Shown here piece after piece: positions 33,092-40,744 of a stretch of 64,000 nt of DNA. Source of the DNA: Acidimicrobiia bacterium (GTDB lineage Bacteria; Actinomycetota; Acidimicrobiia; Spongiisociales; UBA5794); the NCBI GenBank assembly GCA_030065575.1, contig JASJDZ010000024.1:1717-65716 (forward strand). Reading direction: 5' to 3'. The position numbers and the translations under genes were made by a program. The notes beneath the pieces were generated by a model. The model saw only the letters and a list, made by a program, of their open reading frames with translations, was not told where the DNA came from and did no database searches. Position 1 is the first letter of the stretch, and each line of letters begins with the position of its first letter.

Positions 33092-34165
33092 GTGTATGCC
33101 AGGAGCAACCACGAATCAGTGCGACCGGGCCCGCAAGCCGATCCGTATGGGCGCAAAGGCTCTGTAGCGGTGCTGCGGCTTCCCGATCTCAAGCAGGCAC
33201 GTGAGTACCTCGCTGGATGCGACAACCCGTTCGTGGCGGTGCATCTGGCCCGGCTGGAGGATTCAGAAGCCGATGTGACGCGACTGCAGGCTGCGATCGC
33301 CGAGTCTCCGCCGGTTGTGGCCGCTTTGGCCGCCCAGCGTGCCGACGGGAGTTGGGGAAGTCACAACCGGGAGCTGAATCGGCTCCTGCCCACGCTGTGG
33401 ATGGTCAAGACACTGCAGGATCTCGGTCTGTCTCGGAACTGTGATCAGTCGCGACGGGGCATCGAGTTCCTCGCGGCCGTCGGCCATACGGATGAGGGGG
33501 CCTTTTCGATATCAGGTAGCCGCGACGGTGTACTCAGCTGCTACGTAGGAATCGCAGCTCTGGTCTATCTCGAGGGTGGGTTCGCCGAGCACGCACACAG
33601 CCAGCTGCAGTGGATTCTGCGGCATCAAGAGATCAGGGTCGCCGGCGCAGATCGACGCCCTACGCCGGCAGCCGAGTGGGGTGGCTACCTCAAGACGAAG
33701 TACGGGGGCTGCCTGGCGGAAACGACCTGTCTCGTCGGCCTCCTGCGTACGTCACGCGCTCTTGCCGCTGCCGGACACGCTGATGGTGAGCCCCTGATAG
33801 CGGAGACCAGGCGAGCGTTCCTCGAACGTCGCCTCATCTACACCTCAGGTGGCGAGGTGGTGCCGCTGGCGGTCAACCCGGCCAAGGCAGAGACCTGGCT
33901 GGCACCAACCTTCCCGCTCGACTGGCGAGTGGATCTCATCGAGGTCATCGACTTCGTTGGCCGCACCGGACCTCCCGATGATCGCATCCAGCCCGCCGTT
34001 GACCGACTGGTGGAGTTCCAGCGAGAGGACGGAACCTGGCCGTTGCTGCGGGCATATCCCCCGGCAGGCCTTCCCGGACTGGAGCGGCCGTCGACCCGCC
34101 GGCCCAGCGCCATGGCCACCATGCGTGCAGTTGCCGCCTTGGGGACTCTCGAGTCGGTGCCCTAG
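33092..34165 (+). CDS. hypothetical protein with prenyltransferase/squalene-cyclase-like QW repeats
   Basis: 357 aa; QRADGSWG and QREDGTWP QW-type motifs suggest an alpha/alpha toroid; start codon uncertain. Confidence 0.4.
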   Translation: MYARSNHESVRPGPQADPYGRKGSVAVLRLPDLKQAREYLAGCDNPFVAVHLARLEDSEADVTRLQAAIAESPPVVAALAAQRADGSWGSHNRELNRLLPTLWMVKTLQDLGLSRNCDQSRRGIEFLAAVGHTDEGAFSISGSRDGVLSCYVGIAALVYLEGGFAEHAHSQLQWILRHQEIRVAGADRRPTPAAEWGGYLKTKYGGCLAETTCLVGLLRTSRALAAAGHADGEPLIAETRRAFLERRLIYTSGGEVVPLAVNPAKAETWLAPTFPLDWRVDLIEVIDFVGRTGPPDDRIQPAVDRLVEFQREDGTWPLLRAYPPAGLPGLERPSTRRPSAMATMRAVAALGTLESVP

Positions 34166-34923
34166 GACACGGTGGCCGGTGAGCGAGCTTCCACCCGACG
34201 GGGGAGGCCGATGCGAACATCCACGCCATTCGAGTAGTGAACGATCGGCTCCGTGGTCCCAATTTCGTAGCCCGCGGCGGCGACGAGCTGGTCGTCCAAG
34301 TGAACCAGCGCTGCCTTCTGCAGCGGCCAGGTCGGATGATCAACGGGGGCATAGGCCAGCCGGGAGCCCAGCATCGTGTAGAGGCCCCAACGAGCCGTCA
34401 GGAACCGCTCGAGAGGGCTCTGCGCGTCCTCGGGAATTGCCGGACCCGGCGTGACCGACAGTCGGCTCGACGCGTTCTGCGGTCCCGGCCAGCGCCGTCG
34501 CGTCTGGTACTCGGTGCTGTCCCCTGTTTCTCGGATAGCCATCTCCGCCCACATGTAGGGCAGCCGATATGCGGTCCGGGCCACCGCCACCGGGAGCAGG
34601 CGGGTGATGTCGAGGGAATCGAACCACACACCGGGACGGCCCGAGGAGTCCCGTACATAGGTGCGAACGTTCGTCTCCGGGAACGTGCCGAAGTATGGGA
34701 TCGCCGGCGTCCGGGGAATGCGAATACGCTGCATCTCGAAGGCAACCAGACCGACCCAGGCCGAGCCCTCAATGGTGTCGGCCGTCAGCCCGGCGGGCAG
34801 GTTCCGATCGACCTGCTCGGGGGCTACAGGCCAGTGAACGTAGGTGAGCCGCTTCCACGACTGCAGCATCACCGGGCGGCGCACCGGCGCAGGCGTGGTG
34901 AGGGGATGGAGTTTCGTCGCCAT
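34162..34923 (-). CDS. DUF2071 (YqjF-like) family protein
   Basis: 253 aa; W..L...HW.V.PE.V...LP.GL..D...G.AWVG.V.F.M...R......P....F.E.NVRTYV pattern. Confidence 0.7.
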   Translation of the reverse strand: MATKLHPLTTPAPVRRPVMLQSWKRLTYVHWPVAPEQVDRNLPAGLTADTIEGSAWVGLVAFEMQRIRIPRTPAIPYFGTFPETNVRTYVRDSSGRPGVWFDSLDITRLLPVAVARTAYRLPYMWAEMAIRETGDSTEYQTRRRWPGPQNASSRLSVTPGPAIPEDAQSPLERFLTARWGLYTMLGSRLAYAPVDHPTWPLQKAALVHLDDQLVAAAGYEIGTTEPIVHYSNGVDVRIGLPRRVEARSPATVS

Positions 34924-34971: not shown

Positions 34972-35044
34972 TGTGTGGAGTTCGATTGCATCGCCCCTGT
35001 GTGGAGTTCGGTTGTACCGAACTCCAAGCTGATTGCATCAGCCC
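34972..35044. repeat. two adjacent family-2 REP-like units (GGAGTTC hairpin + GATTGCATC dyad)
   Basis: tgtgtGGAGTTCGATTGCATCGCCCC, then tgtgtGGAGTTCGgttgtaCCGAACTCCaagCTGATTGCATCAGccc; the last unit overlaps the cimA stop codon. Confidence 0.75.
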
Positions 35045-36621
35045 ACACCGTTCCGCTTGACGTGACGCAGCAACCCGATGACCAGGCCTTCAACGACAGC
35101 CTTCCAGGAGGCATCGATGATGTTCTCGTGCACGCCAACGGTGCCCCAGCTCGCCTCAACGTCTGAGTGCTCGGTGAGGACACGAACCCGAGCGCTGGTG
35201 CCATCACTGGAATCGAGGTCGCGCACCCGGTAGTCGGTCAGGTGGATGTCTGCCACCTCCGGGAACGTTCTGATCAGAGCCGCACGCAATGCCCGGTCGA
35301 GGGCGCTCACCGGCCCATCGCCCTCACGGGTTGTGACGACGCGCTCATCGCCGACGTGAACCTTGACTGTTGCCTCAGCTATGACCTGTTCGTCTCGGTG
35401 CTCGACGAACACGCGGTACGACTCGAGCTCGAAGAAGTCCTGTTCCCAACCCTGCGCCTCGCGCAACAGAAGCTCGAACGATCCGTCTGCGGCCTCGAAC
35501 TGATAGCCCAGATGCTCGAGCTCCTTGATGCGGTCAACGACCCGCTGCGCATCCTGCGATGACAGCTCGAGGCCTTGCGCCTGCGCCTTGGCCAGGACCG
35601 TAGACCGGCCGGCAAGCTCCGAGACGACGACCCGGGTGGCATTGCCAACCGAGTCCGGGCTCATGTGCTCGTAGGCATCGCTGCGCCGGGCCAGGGCCGA
35701 GGTGTGGAGACCCGCTTTGTGAGTGAACGCAGAGCTTCCCACGTACGGGATGTGTGGGTCGAGAGTCAGATTCACTAGATCGGCCAGGTGATGGGAGACC
35801 CGCGTCAGCCGGGGGAGCCGCTCCTCCGGGATGGTCTCGAAACCCATCTTCAGCGCGAGGTTCGGGATCAAGGAGCAGAGATCTGCGTTCCCGGTCCGCT
35901 CGCCGTAGCCGTTGATGCAGCCCTGCACCTGATAGACGCCTTCGAGGACGGCAGTGATCGAGTTGCCGACGGCCATGCCGGAGTCGTTGTGGAAATGACA
36001 GCCCAGAGTTGCATCACCCAAGGCCTCTCCCACTTCGCCGACTATCCGCTGTACCTCGTGAGATAGGAACCCACCGTTGGTGTCGCAGAGCACGAGCCGC
36101 TCCGCCCCGGCGTCGTGGGCGACCCGAAGTGCGTTGACGGCGAAACCCGGATTGGCCCGATAACCGTCGAAGAAGTGCTCGGCATCGAAGAAGACCCTGC
36201 GCCCCTGAGAGCGCAGATACTCGACGGAGTCACCGATCATCGCCAGCGCTTCGTCGTTGCTGGTGCGCAAGGCGTGCTCGACGTGATAGTCCCACGTCTT
36301 TCCGACGAGGCAGATGACATCTGTGTCGGCTGCAAGCAGGGCGGCGAGCTGCTCGTCGTCCTCCGGTCTGGCGTTGGCCTTGCGGGTTGCGCCAAATGCC
36401 ACCAGCGTTGACGACTCGAGATTGAGCTCGGTCTTGGCCCGTTGGAAGAACTCATCGTCCTTGGGGTTTGCTCCCGGCCAGCCACCCTCGATGTAGGCGA
36501 CTCCCAGGCTGTCCAGGAGAGATGCCACCTTGAGTTTGTCCCGCGCCGTCAGCGAGATGCCCTCCTGCTGAGTGCCGTCGCGGAGAGTTGTGTCATAGAT
36601 CTCGACGGATTGCTTGCCCAT
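35038..36621 (-). CDS. cimA: (R)-citramalate synthase (LeuA/CimA family)
   Basis: MGKQSVEIYDTTLRDGTQQEGISL...YIEGGWPGANPKD.EFF; C-terminal LeuA-dimerisation-type domain; ATG 36621 has a GGGAG Shine-Dalgarno (ORF track starts at 36684). Confidence 0.85.
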   Translation of the reverse strand: MGKQSVEIYDTTLRDGTQQEGISLTARDKLKVASLLDSLGVAYIEGGWPGANPKDDEFFQRAKTELNLESSTLVAFGATRKANARPEDDEQLAALLAADTDVICLVGKTWDYHVEHALRTSNDEALAMIGDSVEYLRSQGRRVFFDAEHFFDGYRANPGFAVNALRVAHDAGAERLVLCDTNGGFLSHEVQRIVGEVGEALGDATLGCHFHNDSGMAVGNSITAVLEGVYQVQGCINGYGERTGNADLCSLIPNLALKMGFETIPEERLPRLTRVSHHLADLVNLTLDPHIPYVGSSAFTHKAGLHTSALARRSDAYEHMSPDSVGNATRVVVSELAGRSTVLAKAQAQGLELSSQDAQRVVDRIKELEHLGYQFEAADGSFELLLREAQGWEQDFFELESYRVFVEHRDEQVIAEATVKVHVGDERVVTTREGDGPVSALDRALRAALIRTFPEVADIHLTDYRVRDLDSSDGTSARVRVLTEHSDVEASWGTVGVHENIIDASWKAVVEGLVIGLLRHVKRNGVG

Positions 36622-36636
36622 TGCCGCTCCCGATAA

Positions 36637-36662
36637 GGAAAACCCCCCGCTCTTGCGGAGGG
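36637..36662 (-). terminator. intrinsic terminator of the cimA leader (attenuator)
   Basis: Minus-strand CCCUCCGC-AAGA-GCGGGGGG followed by UUUUCC, 15 nt upstream of the cimA ATG. Confidence 0.7.
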
Positions 36663-36700
36663 TCGCAGGGGCGCACACGCCCATCAGTGGGGCGTGGCGC

Positions 36701-36730
36701 CTAAGTAATGATGATCACGTTGCTGTTCAT
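36701..36730 (-). CDS. Ile-rich leader peptide MNSNVIIIT
   Basis: ATG AAC AGC AAC GTG ATC ATC ATT ACT TAG on the minus strand. A strong hairpin follows (GCGCCACGCCC-CACUGAU-GGGCGUGUGCGC, 36671-36700), then the terminator. Confidence 0.65.
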   Translation of the reverse strand: MNSNVIIIT

Positions 36731-36934
36731 TGGCCGCGCAGTATGGACTAGATGGTTTCTGCGGTCAAGCCTGGTCTTGCATACCAGTTTCTGGCATGCC
36801 GGGGGCCTAGGGACCTCGGTCCCGCCGATGGGTCCTTTGGTCCTCGTTTTGGCGGGACTTCCGCCTCAGGCCCTTGGTCCCCGGCAGAGGGACATATCGG
36901 CATCTGTATATGGCTGAGGGCGAATGCAACAATC

Positions 36935-36970
36935 GGATTCGCTCCGTCGCATATGCGGCGAAGCGAATCG
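36935..36970 (+). promoter_or_regulatory. 36-nt near-perfect palindrome upstream of the molybdoenzyme gene
   Basis: GGATTCGC-tc-CGTCGCAT|ATGCGGCG-aa-GCGAATCG. A third complementary arm GCGAAT at 36920-36925 allows alternative pairing. Confidence 0.4.
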
Positions 36971-36991
36971 TTCGAAAAAGAGGTCGGAATC

Positions 36992-39283
36992 GTGGCACGG
37001 GTAAAGCTCGACATCACGCGTCGTGCGTTCCTCAAGGGTGGCTTGGCTACCGGTGGGCTAGCAGTAATGGCTCCTACGGCCTCGATCGGCGCCGTCAACG
37101 GGATGCTCAACGCACAAGATCCCTGGTACCGCGAAGGCGCGATCGAGACCACTTACAACGTTTGTGACGTATGCCCATGGCATTGCGGCATCGTTGTGCA
37201 AACTGTCAATGGCGTCGTTCGCAAGATCGATGGCAACCCCAAGGACCCGAAGAGCAGAGGCATGCTCTGCGCCCGCGGCCAGGGTGGCGTTTCGTTCATG
37301 TACGACCCCGACCGACTCCAATCGCCGATGATTCGAACCGGCGAACGTGGGTCGGGCCAGTTCAGAGAGGTCACCTGGGAAGAAGCTCTCGACTACACGG
37401 CCGCGGCGCTGCTCGACATCAAAGACAAGTACGGCGAAGAAAGCCTCGCAGTCTTCGCCCATACATCCGGTGATCACTGGTTCGCCGATCACTTTGCCCA
37501 AGCCTGGGGGACCCCCAACGCAGCCAAGCCATCATCCTCGCTCTGCCTCAGCCCCCGTGATGAGGCGGCAACTCTGACTTATGGGTCGGCCGTCGGCGGT
37601 CATGAACCGGTCGATTGGGATGGCATCCAGGCGATGACCCTCATCGGCAGCCACATCGGGGAGGATGCGCGCAACACGGTGATGCAGGACTTCGCCAACG
37701 CTCACGCCCGTGGCGCCAAAGTGATCGTGGTAGATCCGCGGTTCTCGAGTGTTGCGGCCAAGGCCGACTACTGGTTGCCCATCAAGCCGGGCACCGACAC
37801 TGCGCTGATGCTGGCCTGGATGAACGTTCTCATCGCCGAGGATCTCTACGACAAGGCCTATGTCGCGGAATGGGCCGAGGGCTTTGACGATTTGGCGGCT
37901 CATGTCGCCGAGTTCACTCCCGACTGGGCGGCCGGTATCACCGACCTCCCGGCCGCCCAGATTCGGGAGACAGCTCAGGTCATGGGGGCAAATCTACCGC
38001 GCGCCGCGGTCATCCCCGGACGTCACACGGTTTGGTACGGCAACGACAGTCAGCGGATGCGGGCTACCTACCTGGTCAACACGCTTCTCGGTGCCTACGG
38101 CCGGGAAGGCGGGATGTACTTCAACAAGAGCGCTTACCTGGAAACGTACCCGCACCCGCCCTACACCGTCGCCGGCAGCTCAGGCGGTTGCTCTGCCGAG
38201 CCCGGCGAGGAGACTGCGGAACTGCCTCTCGGCCCGACCGGCAAGGCCCGGGCCGACGGGGTACGTGAGTCGTTCATGCGGGGCCCAACGGCGATGCAGG
38301 AGCTCATTGATCCAATGATTTCCGGCGATCCGTATCCGATCAAGGGCCTCATTGCCTACGGGGTCAACATGCTCAACTCGATCCCGAACCCGCAGAAGAC
38401 GATTGAGGCTCTCAAGGCTCTCGAGTTCGTGGTTGCCATCGATGTTCTGCCCCAGGAGCACATCGCTTGGGCGGATGTCGTGCTGCCTGAGGCGACCTAC
38501 CTGGAGCGGTACGAAGACCTGTTGACCGTCTCCCATAGGACACCGTACATCGCGCTGCGCGAGCCGGCTGTTGATCCTCTCTACGACACGAAACCCGGTT
38601 GGTGGATCTCCCGTGAGCTCGGCACCCGGGTCGGTCTCGACGCTTTCTACAAGTGGGAGAACATCGAGGAGTACATCGACAAGCGGCTGATTTCGGTCGG
38701 CTCCAACATCGAGGGGCTCAGAGAAGAGGGTGGAATCATCACCCAGAACGGGAAGCCATACCTGGAGGACTTCGACGGGTCGTCGCCCTTCGGCACCGGG
38801 TCCGGGAAGATTCAGCTGTACTCACAAGATCTTGCCGAGGCCGGCCACGAAGCGATGCCGGTATACGAGCCCGTCGACGAGCCGCCGACCGGCTTCTTCC
38901 GGCTTCTGTACGGGCGCAGCCCGGTGCACACTTTCGCCAAGACGCAGAACACACCGGTCTTGCATGACATCGATCCGGAGAATGAAATCTGGGTGAATGC
39001 CGACGCTGCGGAGCAGCTCGGTGTGGCCGATGGTGACTACGTCATGCTGGAGAACCAGGACGGTGCTCGCAGCGGTCCGGTCAAGGTGAAGGCAACCGAG
39101 CGGATTCGCCGGGACGCCGTGTACATGGTGCACGGATTCGGGCAGAACGCACCCGGGCTCACCAACGCCAATGGCAAGGGTGCCAGCGACACGAAGTTGC
39201 AGACCCGGTACAAGCTCGATCCCATCAGCGGGGGAGCGGGGATGAGAGTCAACTTCGTCAGACTCGACAAGGAGGGAGTGTGA
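36992..39283 (+). CDS. Tat-exported molybdopterin oxidoreductase, PhsA/PsrA-like catalytic subunit
   Basis: Twin-arginine signal ITRRAFLKGGLATGGLAVMAP; 4Fe-4S motif CDVCPWHCG...LCARG; about 760 aa, the size of thiosulfate/polysulfide reductases; GTG 36992 preceded by AAGAGG. Confidence 0.8.
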   Translation: MARVKLDITRRAFLKGGLATGGLAVMAPTASIGAVNGMLNAQDPWYREGAIETTYNVCDVCPWHCGIVVQTVNGVVRKIDGNPKDPKSRGMLCARGQGGVSFMYDPDRLQSPMIRTGERGSGQFREVTWEEALDYTAAALLDIKDKYGEESLAVFAHTSGDHWFADHFAQAWGTPNAAKPSSSLCLSPRDEAATLTYGSAVGGHEPVDWDGIQAMTLIGSHIGEDARNTVMQDFANAHARGAKVIVVDPRFSSVAAKADYWLPIKPGTDTALMLAWMNVLIAEDLYDKAYVAEWAEGFDDLAAHVAEFTPDWAAGITDLPAAQIRETAQVMGANLPRAAVIPGRHTVWYGNDSQRMRATYLVNTLLGAYGREGGMYFNKSAYLETYPHPPYTVAGSSGGCSAEPGEETAELPLGPTGKARADGVRESFMRGPTAMQELIDPMISGDPYPIKGLIAYGVNMLNSIPNPQKTIEALKALEFVVAIDVLPQEHIAWADVVLPEATYLERYEDLLTVSHRTPYIALREPAVDPLYDTKPGWWISRELGTRVGLDAFYKWENIEEYIDKRLISVGSNIEGLREEGGIITQNGKPYLEDFDGSSPFGTGSGKIQLYSQDLAEAGHEAMPVYEPVDEPPTGFFRLLYGRSPVHTFAKTQNTPVLHDIDPENEIWVNADAAEQLGVADGDYVMLENQDGARSGPVKVKATERIRRDAVYMVHGFGQNAPGLTNANGKGASDTKLQTRYKLDPISGGAGMRVNFVRLDKEGV

Positions 39284-39284
39284 C

Positions 39285-40064
39285 ATGAGTCAATACGCAT
39301 TCCTCCTCGATCTCGGCCGCTGCATCGGATGTCAGGCATGTGTGGCCTCGTGCAAGGTCGGCAACGAGCTCGGTATCGGGCAGCAGTACATCGAGCTGAT
39401 CGAAAAGACTCATGGCGAGTTCCCCAACCTCACCGGCGGGTGGGACAACCACCGCTGCTACCACTGCGGTGACGCCGCCTGTATCGCTGTGTGCCCCACC
39501 GGTTCCCTGTTCAAAGAAGACGGTCTCACTCGTCTCGACCGCAGCACCTGCAGCGGATGCTCGTACTGCACCGAGGCCTGCCCCTATGACATCCCGGTGA
39601 TGTGGGAGGGCAAGTCGAGCAAGTGCGACGGCTGTGCAGACACAGTCAAGGCCGGCGGCAGCCCTTGGTGCGTGGGAACCTGCCCGAGCATGGCGCTCGA
39701 GTACGGGCCCCGCGAAGAGATCCGGGCCGAAGCACATCGTCGTGCTGACGCTCTGCGCAACCGCTATCCGAACGCTCAGGTGTACGGCGAAACGCAGGCC
39801 GGCGGGCTCGGGATGCTGGTCGTGATGCCAGATGATCCCGAGCTGCTTGACATCCCGATCGACCCGAAGACGCCGTTCATGGCGCAGGCATGGCAGAAGA
39901 TCGTTCAGCCTGCCTCCGTCGGCATCACCATCGGTGCTGCGGTTGTCGCCGGAGCTGCAGCCGTTGTCGCCAGGCGACGGCACGAAGAGGAGCTCGACGA
40001 GCTCGAAGCGGCGGGCGTGATCAGCGGGCACGGAGATGAGAAGGAGCAGGAGGAGGACGAATGA
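39285..40064 (+). CDS. 4Fe-4S ferredoxin-type electron-transfer subunit (PhsB/FdnH-like) with C-terminal TM anchor
   Basis: 259 aa; CIGCQACV.SC, C.HC.DAAC...CP, CSGCSYC..ACP, C..C cluster motifs; C-terminal hydrophobic helix IVQPASVGITIGAAVVAGAAAVV. Confidence 0.85.
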   Translation: MSQYAFLLDLGRCIGCQACVASCKVGNELGIGQQYIELIEKTHGEFPNLTGGWDNHRCYHCGDAACIAVCPTGSLFKEDGLTRLDRSTCSGCSYCTEACPYDIPVMWEGKSSKCDGCADTVKAGGSPWCVGTCPSMALEYGPREEIRAEAHRRADALRNRYPNAQVYGETQAGGLGMLVVMPDDPELLDIPIDPKTPFMAQAWQKIVQPASVGITIGAAVVAGAAAVVARRRHEEELDELEAAGVISGHGDEKEQEEDE

Positions 40065-40744
40065 CCACGCAGAAGGTTCCACTCGGCGATCGTGAGGTCC
40101 TTCGCTACCGCAAGCGGCCCAGAATCGTCCACGCCATCCTCGCCAGCTCGTTCCTGATCCTCCTCCTCACCGGCTTGGTGATCCTGTGGCCGGCCCTGTC
40201 GTTTCTCGCCCCGGGTGGGGCGACACGGTGGCTGCACCGGGTAGCTGCCGTCGGGTTCATGTCGGTGCCGATCGTGTATCTGATCGTCGATCGTGAGGGC
40301 GCCAAGGAGCTGATGGTTGACTCGTTCAAGTACGACCGGGACGACTGGCGCTGGATCAAGAGGTTCTGGTCGTATGCCTTTGGGCACACCGCCAACATGC
40401 CCAAGCAGGGGCGCTTGAACGCAGGTCAGAAGATGCATCACGCCCTGGTGATGCTCCTCTCGGCCTCAATAGTCGCCTCCGGATTGGCGCTGTGGTTCTT
40501 CATGCCATCGCTAGGTCCGACCGGACAGGCATGGGCTGCCGTGATCCACGATCTTTCGATGCTGGCACTGACGTTGCTGTTGGTGGGGCATCTCTATTTC
40601 ACCTTCGTCTACAAGGCGCTCTCGGGTATGACCCGTGGCTACGTCGATATCGATGAAGCCCGGCTCGAGCACGCCAAGTGGGTGGAGGAACTCGAGCAAG
40701 AAGCAGCCGAAGAGGCTGCAGAGGAAGACAAACAAGCAGTTTGA
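40061..40744 (+). CDS. cytochrome b membrane subunit (FdnI/PhsC-like)
   Basis: 227 aa; 4 TM with conserved His (RIVHAI.., WLHR.., KMHHALV.., VIHDLS..GHLYF); ATGA overlap with the upstream gene. Confidence 0.7.
   Translation: MTTQKVPLGDREVLRYRKRPRIVHAILASSFLILLLTGLVILWPALSFLAPGGATRWLHRVAAVGFMSVPIVYLIVDREGAKELMVDSFKYDRDDWRWIKRFWSYAFGHTANMPKQGRLNAGQKMHHALVMLLSASIVASGLALWFFMPSLGPTGQAWAAVIHDLSMLALTLLLVGHLYFTFVYKALSGMTRGYVDIDEARLEHAKWVEELEQEAAEEAAEEDKQAV

Follow-up and report, generated by a model that had tools for sequence, protein, structure and literature searches.

An isoleucine-codon leader with two covarying hairpins upstream of cimA in Acidimicrobiia: a probable tRNA-Ile-sensing attenuator with no recognizable antiterminator

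How might a bacterium that makes isoleucine through citramalate adjust the transcription of cimA, the citramalate synthase gene, to its supply of charged tRNA-Ile? The question is raised by a 64,000-nucleotide (nt) stretch of DNA, hereafter the window, from an Acidimicrobiia bacterium (GenBank assembly GCA_030065575.1, contig JASJDZ010000024.1, positions 1,717 to 65,716), in which a 9-codon open reading frame (ORF), a hairpin and an intrinsic terminator stand directly in front of cimA on the minus strand. An earlier reading made from the letters alone, hereafter the sequence-only reading, had described this arrangement as an isoleucine-codon leader peptide with classical ribosome-mediated attenuation. 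We conclude from comparative analysis that the element is probably an attenuator of cimA transcription in which a translating ribosome senses charged tRNA-Ile; termination would be the output and tRNA charging the signal, as in the attenuators already established. How a stalled ribosome would cause read-through is a separate question, for which we offer a tentative answer below. The parts of the element in the window are these:

36763..36768, minus strand: -35 box TTGACC of the leader promoter (promoter scan)
36740..36745, minus strand: -10 box CATACT, 17 nt from the -35 box and 9 nt 5' of the leader ATG (promoter scan)
36701..36730, minus strand: leader mini-ORF MNSNVIIIT-stop, 9 codons and TAG (ATG AAC AGC AAC GTG ATC ATC ATT ACT TAG)
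36707..36715, minus strand: control codons ATC ATC ATT (Ile-Ile-Ile), with GTG (Val) directly 5' at 36716-36718
36670..36701, minus strand: hairpin P1, 12 pairs with one bulged U and a 7-nt loop, GGCGCCACGCCC / GGGCGUG(U)GCGCC (folding)
36665..36669, minus strand: spacer between P1 and T, 5 nt in the window
36639..36664, minus strand: intrinsic terminator T, GACCCUCCGC-AAGA-GCGGGGGGUU and U tract, the 10-pair stem at 36664-36641 and the U tract ending at 36639
36662-36643, minus strand: core of terminator T, CCCUCCGC-AAGA-GCGGGGGG
36627..36631, minus strand: Shine-Dalgarno sequence GGGAG of cimA, 5 nt 5' of its ATG (read from the sequence)
35038..36621, minus strand: cimA, citramalate synthase, 527 amino acids (aa), the putatively regulated gene (TIGR00977)

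The mini-ORF lies where the sequence-only reading had placed it, at 36730-36701, and some details of what follows it change. The hairpin is there, but the single nucleotide said to separate it from the stop codon is not, the outermost pair of P1 (36701-36670) being able to use the G of TAG. The terminator, described as an 8-bp stem with AAGA and UUUU, stands as the core of a stem that extends to 10 pairs, and its distance from cimA, given as 15 nt, is actually 17 nt between the last U and the ATG at 36621. Only one sigma-70-like promoter was found in the 700 nt scanned, against 0.1 expected, and it lies exactly 5' of the leader ORF, with TTGAC(G/C/A) at equal distance in related loci. Folding of the 131-nt leader, in DNA of ~63% G+C, gives -57.6 kcal/mol (z = -2.65 versus shuffles) and exactly two hairpins, P1 and T. 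The promoter, the fold z-score and ~120 independent related loci with covariation confirm that the leader element is real and not a chance arrangement. The ATG of the ORF is preceded by no Shine-Dalgarno sequence in the window, and the promoter position implies a leaderless or nearly leaderless transcript, with a predicted 5' untranslated region (UTR) of 0-4 nt.

The identity of the downstream gene, taken as citramalate synthase by the sequence-only reading, is borne out: its product scores 676.9 bits against the TIGR00977 citramalate synthase equivalog (cut-off 450) and well below the cut-offs of the 2-isopropylmalate synthase models. Its closest homologues come from Acidimicrobiia metagenome-assembled genomes (MAGs), where they are named citramalate synthase; many database copies of the protein carry the name 2-isopropylmalate synthase. 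An ATG in the P1 loop (36682-36684, minus strand) is in frame with cimA, and mechanical ORF calling accordingly yields a product of 548 aa (35038-36684); the conserved start that bears the Shine-Dalgarno sequence is at 36621, and the ATG at 36682-36684 does not occur in relatives.

How widely is this arrangement shared? From a scan of one genome per species, the best 80 of 588 matches were taken, corresponding to 80 cimA loci with 59-88% protein identity, and plain inspection found the -10 box, a short ORF ending in isoleucine codons, a hairpin at the stop codon and a terminator directly 5' of cimA at 55 of the 79 assessable loci. A covariance model, R1, built from 52 of the inspected leaders, has one match in the window, at 36637-36718 (64 bits, E = 9e-14), and matches 76 of the 80 Acidimicrobiia loci. 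The match lies directly 5' of cimA in 58 loci and, in 18 more distant ones, ~2 kb upstream, before an operon leuB-ilvE-cimA (at locus L075, leuB matches NF002898 with 490 bits versus 393 and ilvE matches NF005146 with 436 versus 279), where 80-200 nt of untranslated RNA separate the element from leuB. Four loci are R1-negative, two of them without the relevant upstream DNA. In a test blind to protein, metagenome contigs were scanned for the pattern ATCATYATYNNNTAGGCGCAYAC, which gave 47 matches, 45 of them full elements and 2 chance matches in A+T-rich or unrelated DNA. All of the 45 elements with enough downstream DNA precede cimA (~90 nt away) or leuB-ilvE-cimA, and therefore the element is specific to transcription units containing cimA. 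Thus, the conserved mini-ORF rich in isoleucine codons that the sequence-only reading proposed to look for upstream of cimA in relatives is present at 76 of 80 genome loci and at 45 of 47 metagenome loci.

Four contigs in the set (L014, L038, L061 and L062) come from MAGs labelled Saprospiraceae or Acidobacteria and yet carry an Acidimicrobiia-type cimA at 60-76% identity, with the isoleucine leader in all but L038; this suggests that the labels are binning or labelling errors.

Conservation of the reading frame, synonymous exchange and codon positions support the view that the leader ORF is translated and that isoleucine is what is read there. At 63 of the 64 assessable loci, the first ATG or GTG past the -10 hexamer opens a frame that runs uninterrupted to the stop codon at P1 (p = 4e-29 under a null of one third). 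Among the 77 elements of a model-based alignment, to which the counts below also refer, the -10 box is CATACT in 51, a -10-like hexamer lies 6-12 nt 5' of the start codon in 66, and no sequence resembling a Shine-Dalgarno motif intervenes between hexamer and start codon. The leader peptides have 7-16 residues, most commonly 11-12, with variable N-terminal halves, and follow the pattern M-x(3-12)-[IV]-I-I-X-stop. Positions -4 to -2 hold isoleucine or valine, isoleucine being found at position -2 in 69, at -3 in 60 and at -4 in 53 of 74 leaders, and position -1 admits T, P, D, R, A and others. The control codons thus stop exactly one sense codon 5' of the stop codon. ATC and ATT are freely exchanged among leaders while isoleucine is kept. 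In the clade with leuB-ilvE-cimA the run mixes isoleucine and valine (e.g., VIIIR, TIVIP, ISVVS), which fits an operon that would serve all branched-chain amino acids.

Two further features of codon usage accompany the run. ATT makes up 33% of the isoleucine codons in leaders versus 8.6% in cimA genes, and this rare codon mostly stands second or third in the run (36707-36709, minus strand, in the window); because the same tRNA reads ATC and ATT, the excess may tune decoding speed or keep the ORF unstructured. Threonine is strongly enriched just 5' of the run, where positions -5, -6 and -7 each hold it in 21-28 of 74 leaders (window 36716-36727, minus strand), and this enrichment could reflect a second input, whereby threonine shortage would favour the threonine-independent route, or a choice of A/C-rich codons free of structure.

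Both hairpins covary. In the alignment, 92% of the cells are standard pairs and 15 of the 19 pairs show changes on both sides; compensatory cells number 152 versus 45 in shuffles, with none of 500 shuffles as high, counts that were made on an alignment fitted to the model itself and have to be read accordingly. Sliding the partner columns reduces pairing to 31-63%, and an independent MAFFT/RNAalifold run recovered the cores of both helices, with compensatory changes. The two helices contribute alike: in P1, 8 of the 10 modelled pairs change on both sides and 90% of the cells are paired; in T, which in related elements is a 9-10-bp G+C stem followed by a U tract, the figures are 7 of 9 pairs and 94%. 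The distances are fixed where they concern the ORF and the two helices. P1 starts at the last nucleotide of the stop codon or at the next one, which is probably why 57 of the 77 leader stops are TAG, and 41 elements have a spacer of 4 nt between P1 and T, with 74 falling within 3-6 nt. In every relative, as in the window, P1 and spacer put ~37 nt between the stop codon and T. The loop of P1 varies between 2 and 14 nt, and 17-60 nt lie between T and cimA.

Is the geometry tied to isoleucine? A geometry-based scan of the collected DNA for other amino acids returned the isoleucine type only, and a scan restricted to leucine codons then gave a leucine type, which provides the strongest control. 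On three metagenome contigs that all carry the isoleucine element (L085, L107 and L108), leuA, the paralogue for 2-isopropylmalate synthase, is preceded by a leader that ends Leu-Leu-Leu-Thr-TGA, the peptides being MRERLFVESLLLT, MRVYQFVTDLLLT and MRTRVIDGLLLT; the gene product matches NF002086 with 695 bits (cut-off 532) and TIGR00973 with 643 (cut-off 599). On L108, the features lie as follows:

~9690-9580, minus strand of the record: leucine leader
9536-7806, minus strand of the record: leuA

The hairpin of the leucine leader (CGGCGAGCGC...GCGCUCGCCG) begins at the stop codon and is followed, after ~4 nt, by the terminator CCCCCUGAGCC...GGCCAGGGGG-UUUUU. Its stems are unrelated in sequence to those of the isoleucine type; the geometry is equal, and the control codon is that of the pathway product. 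LeuA here has an N-terminal extension of 60 residues rich in K, A, G and P. Taken together, the distribution of the element, the reading frame, the isoleucine positions, the covariation and the leucine sister strongly support the proposal of the sequence-only reading that an isoleucine-codon leader would tie cimA to the charging of tRNA-Ile.

Several observations nevertheless weigh against an attenuator of this kind, above all the outcome of the search for an antiterminator. Folding 52 leaders with the ORF and 0-13 nt of P1 kept unpaired never lowered the pair probability of T, which stayed at least 0.9 in nearly all; the segment that runs from the loop of P1 to that of T, folded alone, gives weak and inconsistent structures, none of them conserved. 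An all-versus-all column scan of the 77-element alignment detected no alternative helix of at least 4 bp, only P1, T and register shifts of these. In a kinetic setting, before the 3' arm of T exists, pairing of its 5' arm with the freed P1 strand scores 0.412 versus 0.407 for shuffled sequence. The nulls of these three tests, by masking, column scan and kinetic pairing, mean that the mutually exclusive structures of classical attenuation do not exist here and have not just been overlooked. Stalling on the isoleucine codons should leave P1 and T intact, for which classical logic predicts termination; the link from stalling to read-through is, with the antiterminator absent, a model with no direct precedent and the most uncertain part of our interpretation. 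Besides the model-fitted alignment mentioned above, further caution comes from the U tract of the window, which is short (4 U, then CCUU), and from a public run search for the window sequence, which matched only marine-sediment DNA metagenomes and no RNA runs. Finally, mutation of the candidate control codons in the ilvB leader of Streptomyces coelicolor left regulation unchanged (summarised in PMC1262725), which warns that actinobacterial "leaders" need testing.

The antiterminator pairing that the sequence-only reading could not make out by eye is, then, not found by computation either; the folding that it proposed as a check produces P1 and T and no mutually exclusive structures, and its word "classical" does not hold. 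Could a classical three-structure attenuator nonetheless be present, with a weak, non-canonical or co-transcriptional antiterminator in which the P1 3' arm joins the T 5' arm and which the analysis missed? The layout of leader ORF, hairpin and terminator does mimic the 1:2 and 3:4 structures of trp-type attenuators, and many loci share a GCG/CGC match of 3 bp through which the P1 3' arm could pair with the top of the T 5' arm. We consider this unlikely, given the persistence of T in the masked leaders, the missing alternative helix and the near-equality of kinetic pairing with shuffles; furthermore, an antiterminator was likewise not found in the leucine sister leaders, and the predicted stall position leaves P1 intact.

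Other ways of converting a stall into expression of cimA were tried and rejected. Frameshifting or read-through at hungry isoleucine codons, with translation proceeding through T, meets three frames that are mostly open, the DNA being G+C-rich (45, 37 and 48 of 52), and in the window the -1 frame stops 14 nt past the leader stop. Inspection for translational bypass or a -1 frameshift revealed no matching take-off and landing codons and no slippery heptamer. Masking of the cimA ribosome-binding site by the 3' arm of P1, an idea taken from GCACAC motifs near some starts, gives duplex energies no better than those of shuffles (mean z = 0.09).

The antiterminator being absent, the step from stalling to read-through must differ from the trp/ilv paradigm, and we propose the following model for the attenuator. 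With ample isoleucine, a 70S ribosome would load on the 5'-terminal AUG, reach the stop codon, melt P1 and depart, and T would fold in RNA polymerase, giving a transcript of ~93 nt. With Ile-tRNA scarce, the ribosome would park on the isoleucine codons and transcription would read into cimA. The ribosomal helicase at the mRNA entrance lies at about +11 to +13 from the first nucleotide of the P site, according to footprint figures from other bacteria. A ribosome with its A site on codon -2 would have the stop codon at +10 to +12 and the base of P1, at +12/+13 from the P site, at its mRNA entrance. The parked ribosome would then abut an intact P1, with T tethered by only ~4 nt and the end of a helix. 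Intrinsic termination requires the hairpin to close, within the exit channel, up to 7-9 nt from the 3' end of the RNA; we propose accordingly that this short tether would sterically block T from closing to its base in the exit channel of the polymerase, resulting in read-through. Once the A site has reached the stop codon, the ribosomal channel would have taken in 6-9 nt from the 5' arm of P1 and so destroyed this hairpin, so that, two codons on, either the unwound P1 would provide 20-30 nt of single-stranded slack or the ribosome would be gone, and T could form and terminate transcription. P1 probably also serves as a pause hairpin, which would give a leaderless ribosome, loading after ~30 nt have emerged, the time to reach the control codons.

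Such a model would explain the sign of the regulation, the missing antiterminator, the fixed distances from codons to P1 and from P1 to T, the free length of the loop and the re-use of the geometry. We therefore raise, as a possibility that we hold to be well short of even odds, that these leaders represent a distinct class of attenuators that dispense with an RNA antiterminator, in which a parked ribosome and an intact P1 together would block T, and which has been re-used with isoleucine codons for cimA and with leucine codons for leuA.

Alternatively, the stalled leaderless mini-ORF could alter the translation of cimA or the decay of its mRNA, with T acting as a constitutive partial terminator. 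The same idea has been proposed for mycobacterial poly-Cys leaderless upstream ORFs, actinobacterial leader ORFs without the full set of attenuator parts are known (PMC1262725), and there is no antiterminator here. Nonetheless, we regard this form of control as quite improbable, slightly more so than a missed antiterminator: a terminator with a U tract is conserved and covaries in the 77 elements, the 3' arm of P1 has no excess pairing with the ribosome-binding region of cimA, neither P1 nor T sequesters the Shine-Dalgarno sequence, and in the 18 leuB-type loci a long untranslated segment lies between the element and the first gene.

It is very unlikely, in our estimate, that a trans-acting factor, protein or tRNA, binds P1 and decides termination, with the isoleucine codons being secondary. 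Within the isoleucine type, the P1 sequence GCGCAYACG...CGUGUGCGC is conserved beyond what pairing needs, and the actinobacterial LEU element has in the past been suggested to work through a regulatory protein (PMC1262725). However, the P1 loop varies widely in length, P1 sequences at loci L005, L016, L018, L062 and L076 are quite different while pairing is kept, and the P1 of the leucine type is unrelated in sequence and identical in position; there is no match to a T-box or other Rfam family, and a factor of this kind would leave the conservation of codons and frame unexplained. Least credible of all is an independent small gene, for a hydrophobic micropeptide or a small RNA, with cimA transcribed from another promoter: promoter, ORF and terminator do make a complete ~93-nt unit, but a promoter would not fit into the gap between T and cimA, what is conserved is the isoleucine run and its distance to P1 and not the N-terminal half of the peptide, and the link to cimA or leuB-ilvE-cimA is exclusive, with the control codon becoming leucine before leuA.

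How does the predicted attenuator relate to known systems? An Rfam cmscan of 36300-37300 (E <= 10) returned only three sub-threshold chance matches, two to microRNA models and one to a viral frameshift element, and none to curated leader and riboswitch families such as Thr_leader, Leu_leader or T-box. The sequence-only reading suggested that an isoleucine-sensing leader on cimA might not have been described, and our search of the literature for leader peptides, attenuators or T-boxes at citramalate synthase genes likewise found no prior description. In Deltaproteobacteria, an isoleucine T-box may precede a cimA-like gene. What appears to be new here, judging from the comparative evidence, is a leader-peptide attenuator with a new target gene, in a new clade and with a two-hairpin architecture that lacks an antiterminator.

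The enterobacterial leaders of ilvGMEDA (ilvL), ilvBN (ivbL) and thr (thrL) resemble the Acidimicrobiia element in having a short ORF rich in codons for the end product and an intrinsic terminator before a biosynthetic gene, the signal being tRNA charging read by a translating ribosome; thrL joins threonine and isoleucine codons, and threonine is enriched just before the isoleucine run here. These leaders run to 14-32 codons, have a Shine-Dalgarno sequence and carry their control codons within segment 1, and in them the 3:4 terminator is excluded by a 2:3 antiterminator. By contrast, the Acidimicrobiia element is predicted to be leaderless, has 7-16 codons with the control codons ending one before the stop, carries its hairpin at the stop codon and shows no antiterminator.

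Leaderless leader peptides have a precedent in Actinomycetota, provided by the ilvBNC leader of Corynebacterium glutamicum (MTIIRLVVVTARRLP), whose transcript starts 1 nt from the start codon, with no ribosome-binding site (PMC11857589). That leader combines branched-chain control codons with a terminator, its regulation requires translation, and its 292 nt form three overlapping hairpins, the anti-antiterminator, antiterminator and terminator, that respond to isoleucine, valine and leucine (PMC11857589). It controls ilvB in the same phylum, whereas the Acidimicrobiia element, of ~93 nt and with two non-overlapping hairpins, would control cimA.

Escherichia coli pyrBI and pyrE offer the nearest precedent for a ribosome that takes the place of the antiterminator. 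They sense UTP through polymerase pausing, not tRNA charging, and their leader ORF ends within the terminator or beside it. As worked out by Turnbough and Switzer, they have no RNA antiterminator, and a ribosome close behind RNA polymerase prevents the terminator hairpin. The present element differs in the folded P1 between ORF and terminator, which would act as a collapsible tether. Direct occlusion of the pyrBI/pyrE type was considered and rejected, the stop codon lying ~37 nt upstream of T; occlusion is possible only via a folded P1.

A survey of actinobacterial leaders by Seliverstov et al. in 2005 described trp attenuators, the LEU pseudoknot before leuA and T-boxes of ileS, as well as ilvB leader ORFs that overlap the terminator and cysteine leaders without a terminator, components being often missing; it did not include Acidimicrobiia or cimA (PMC1262725). 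The ilvB and poly-Cys leaders of this survey are like the present one in being candidate leader peptides that lack some of the classical attenuator parts. Most Actinobacteria have the LEU pseudoknot element at leuA (PMC1262725), whereas leuA here has a leucine leader. Isoleucine T-box riboswitches, such as those of actinobacterial ileS, share with the present element the tRNA-Ile charging signal and the position in a 5' leader. A T-box binds tRNA directly through Stem I and the T-box antiterminator or anti-sequestrator, with no translation involved; by contrast, the cimA leader has no such structure and no Rfam match.

The surroundings of cimA in the window complete the picture of the locus. 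A gene for a DUF2071 (COG2071) protein follows on the same strand (34162-34923, minus strand), 115 nt 3' of cimA. Diverging from the leader, an operon at 36995-40744 (plus strand) encodes a molybdopterin oxidoreductase with a Tat signal, a 4Fe-4S dicluster protein and a cytochrome b561-type membrane subunit; among NCBIfam models the first matches thiosulfate reductase PhsA best, though its 499 bits do not reach the cut-off of 694, and together these genes make up a PhsABC/PsrABC-like respiratory reductase. Between the leader promoter and this phsA-like gene lies a dense nest of inverted repeats (36797-36886 and 36936-36969, plus strand), with 16-nt arms at 36797-36812 and 36871-36886, the pair GTCCCGCC/GGCGGGAC, and a 17-nt palindrome with a perfect centre at 36936-36969, just 5' of the GTG at 36995. 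Plus-strand RNA of 36790-36997 folds at -96.8 kcal/mol (z = -3.0), and Rfam has no match for this region; it may be a 5' UTR structure or an operator of the molybdopterin oxidoreductase operon. On contig L107, a similar GGGTCCCGCC motif lies in tandem copies upstream of the leucine leader.

Control of the citramalate route is known mainly as feedback inhibition of the enzyme. If our reading is true, the cimA leader would be the first RNA-level control dependent on tRNA charging to be described for this threonine-independent route to isoleucine. The control codon would further serve as a built-in label that separates the paralogues CimA, with its isoleucine leader, and LeuA, with its leucine leader, which are often confused by homology. 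Leaderless regulatory mini-ORFs would thereby be documented in a largely uncultured class of actinobacteria, and the compact ~93-nt element would offer a genetically tractable system for testing if steric coupling is enough for a ribosome to control an intrinsic terminator, a live question in the coupling of transcription and translation.

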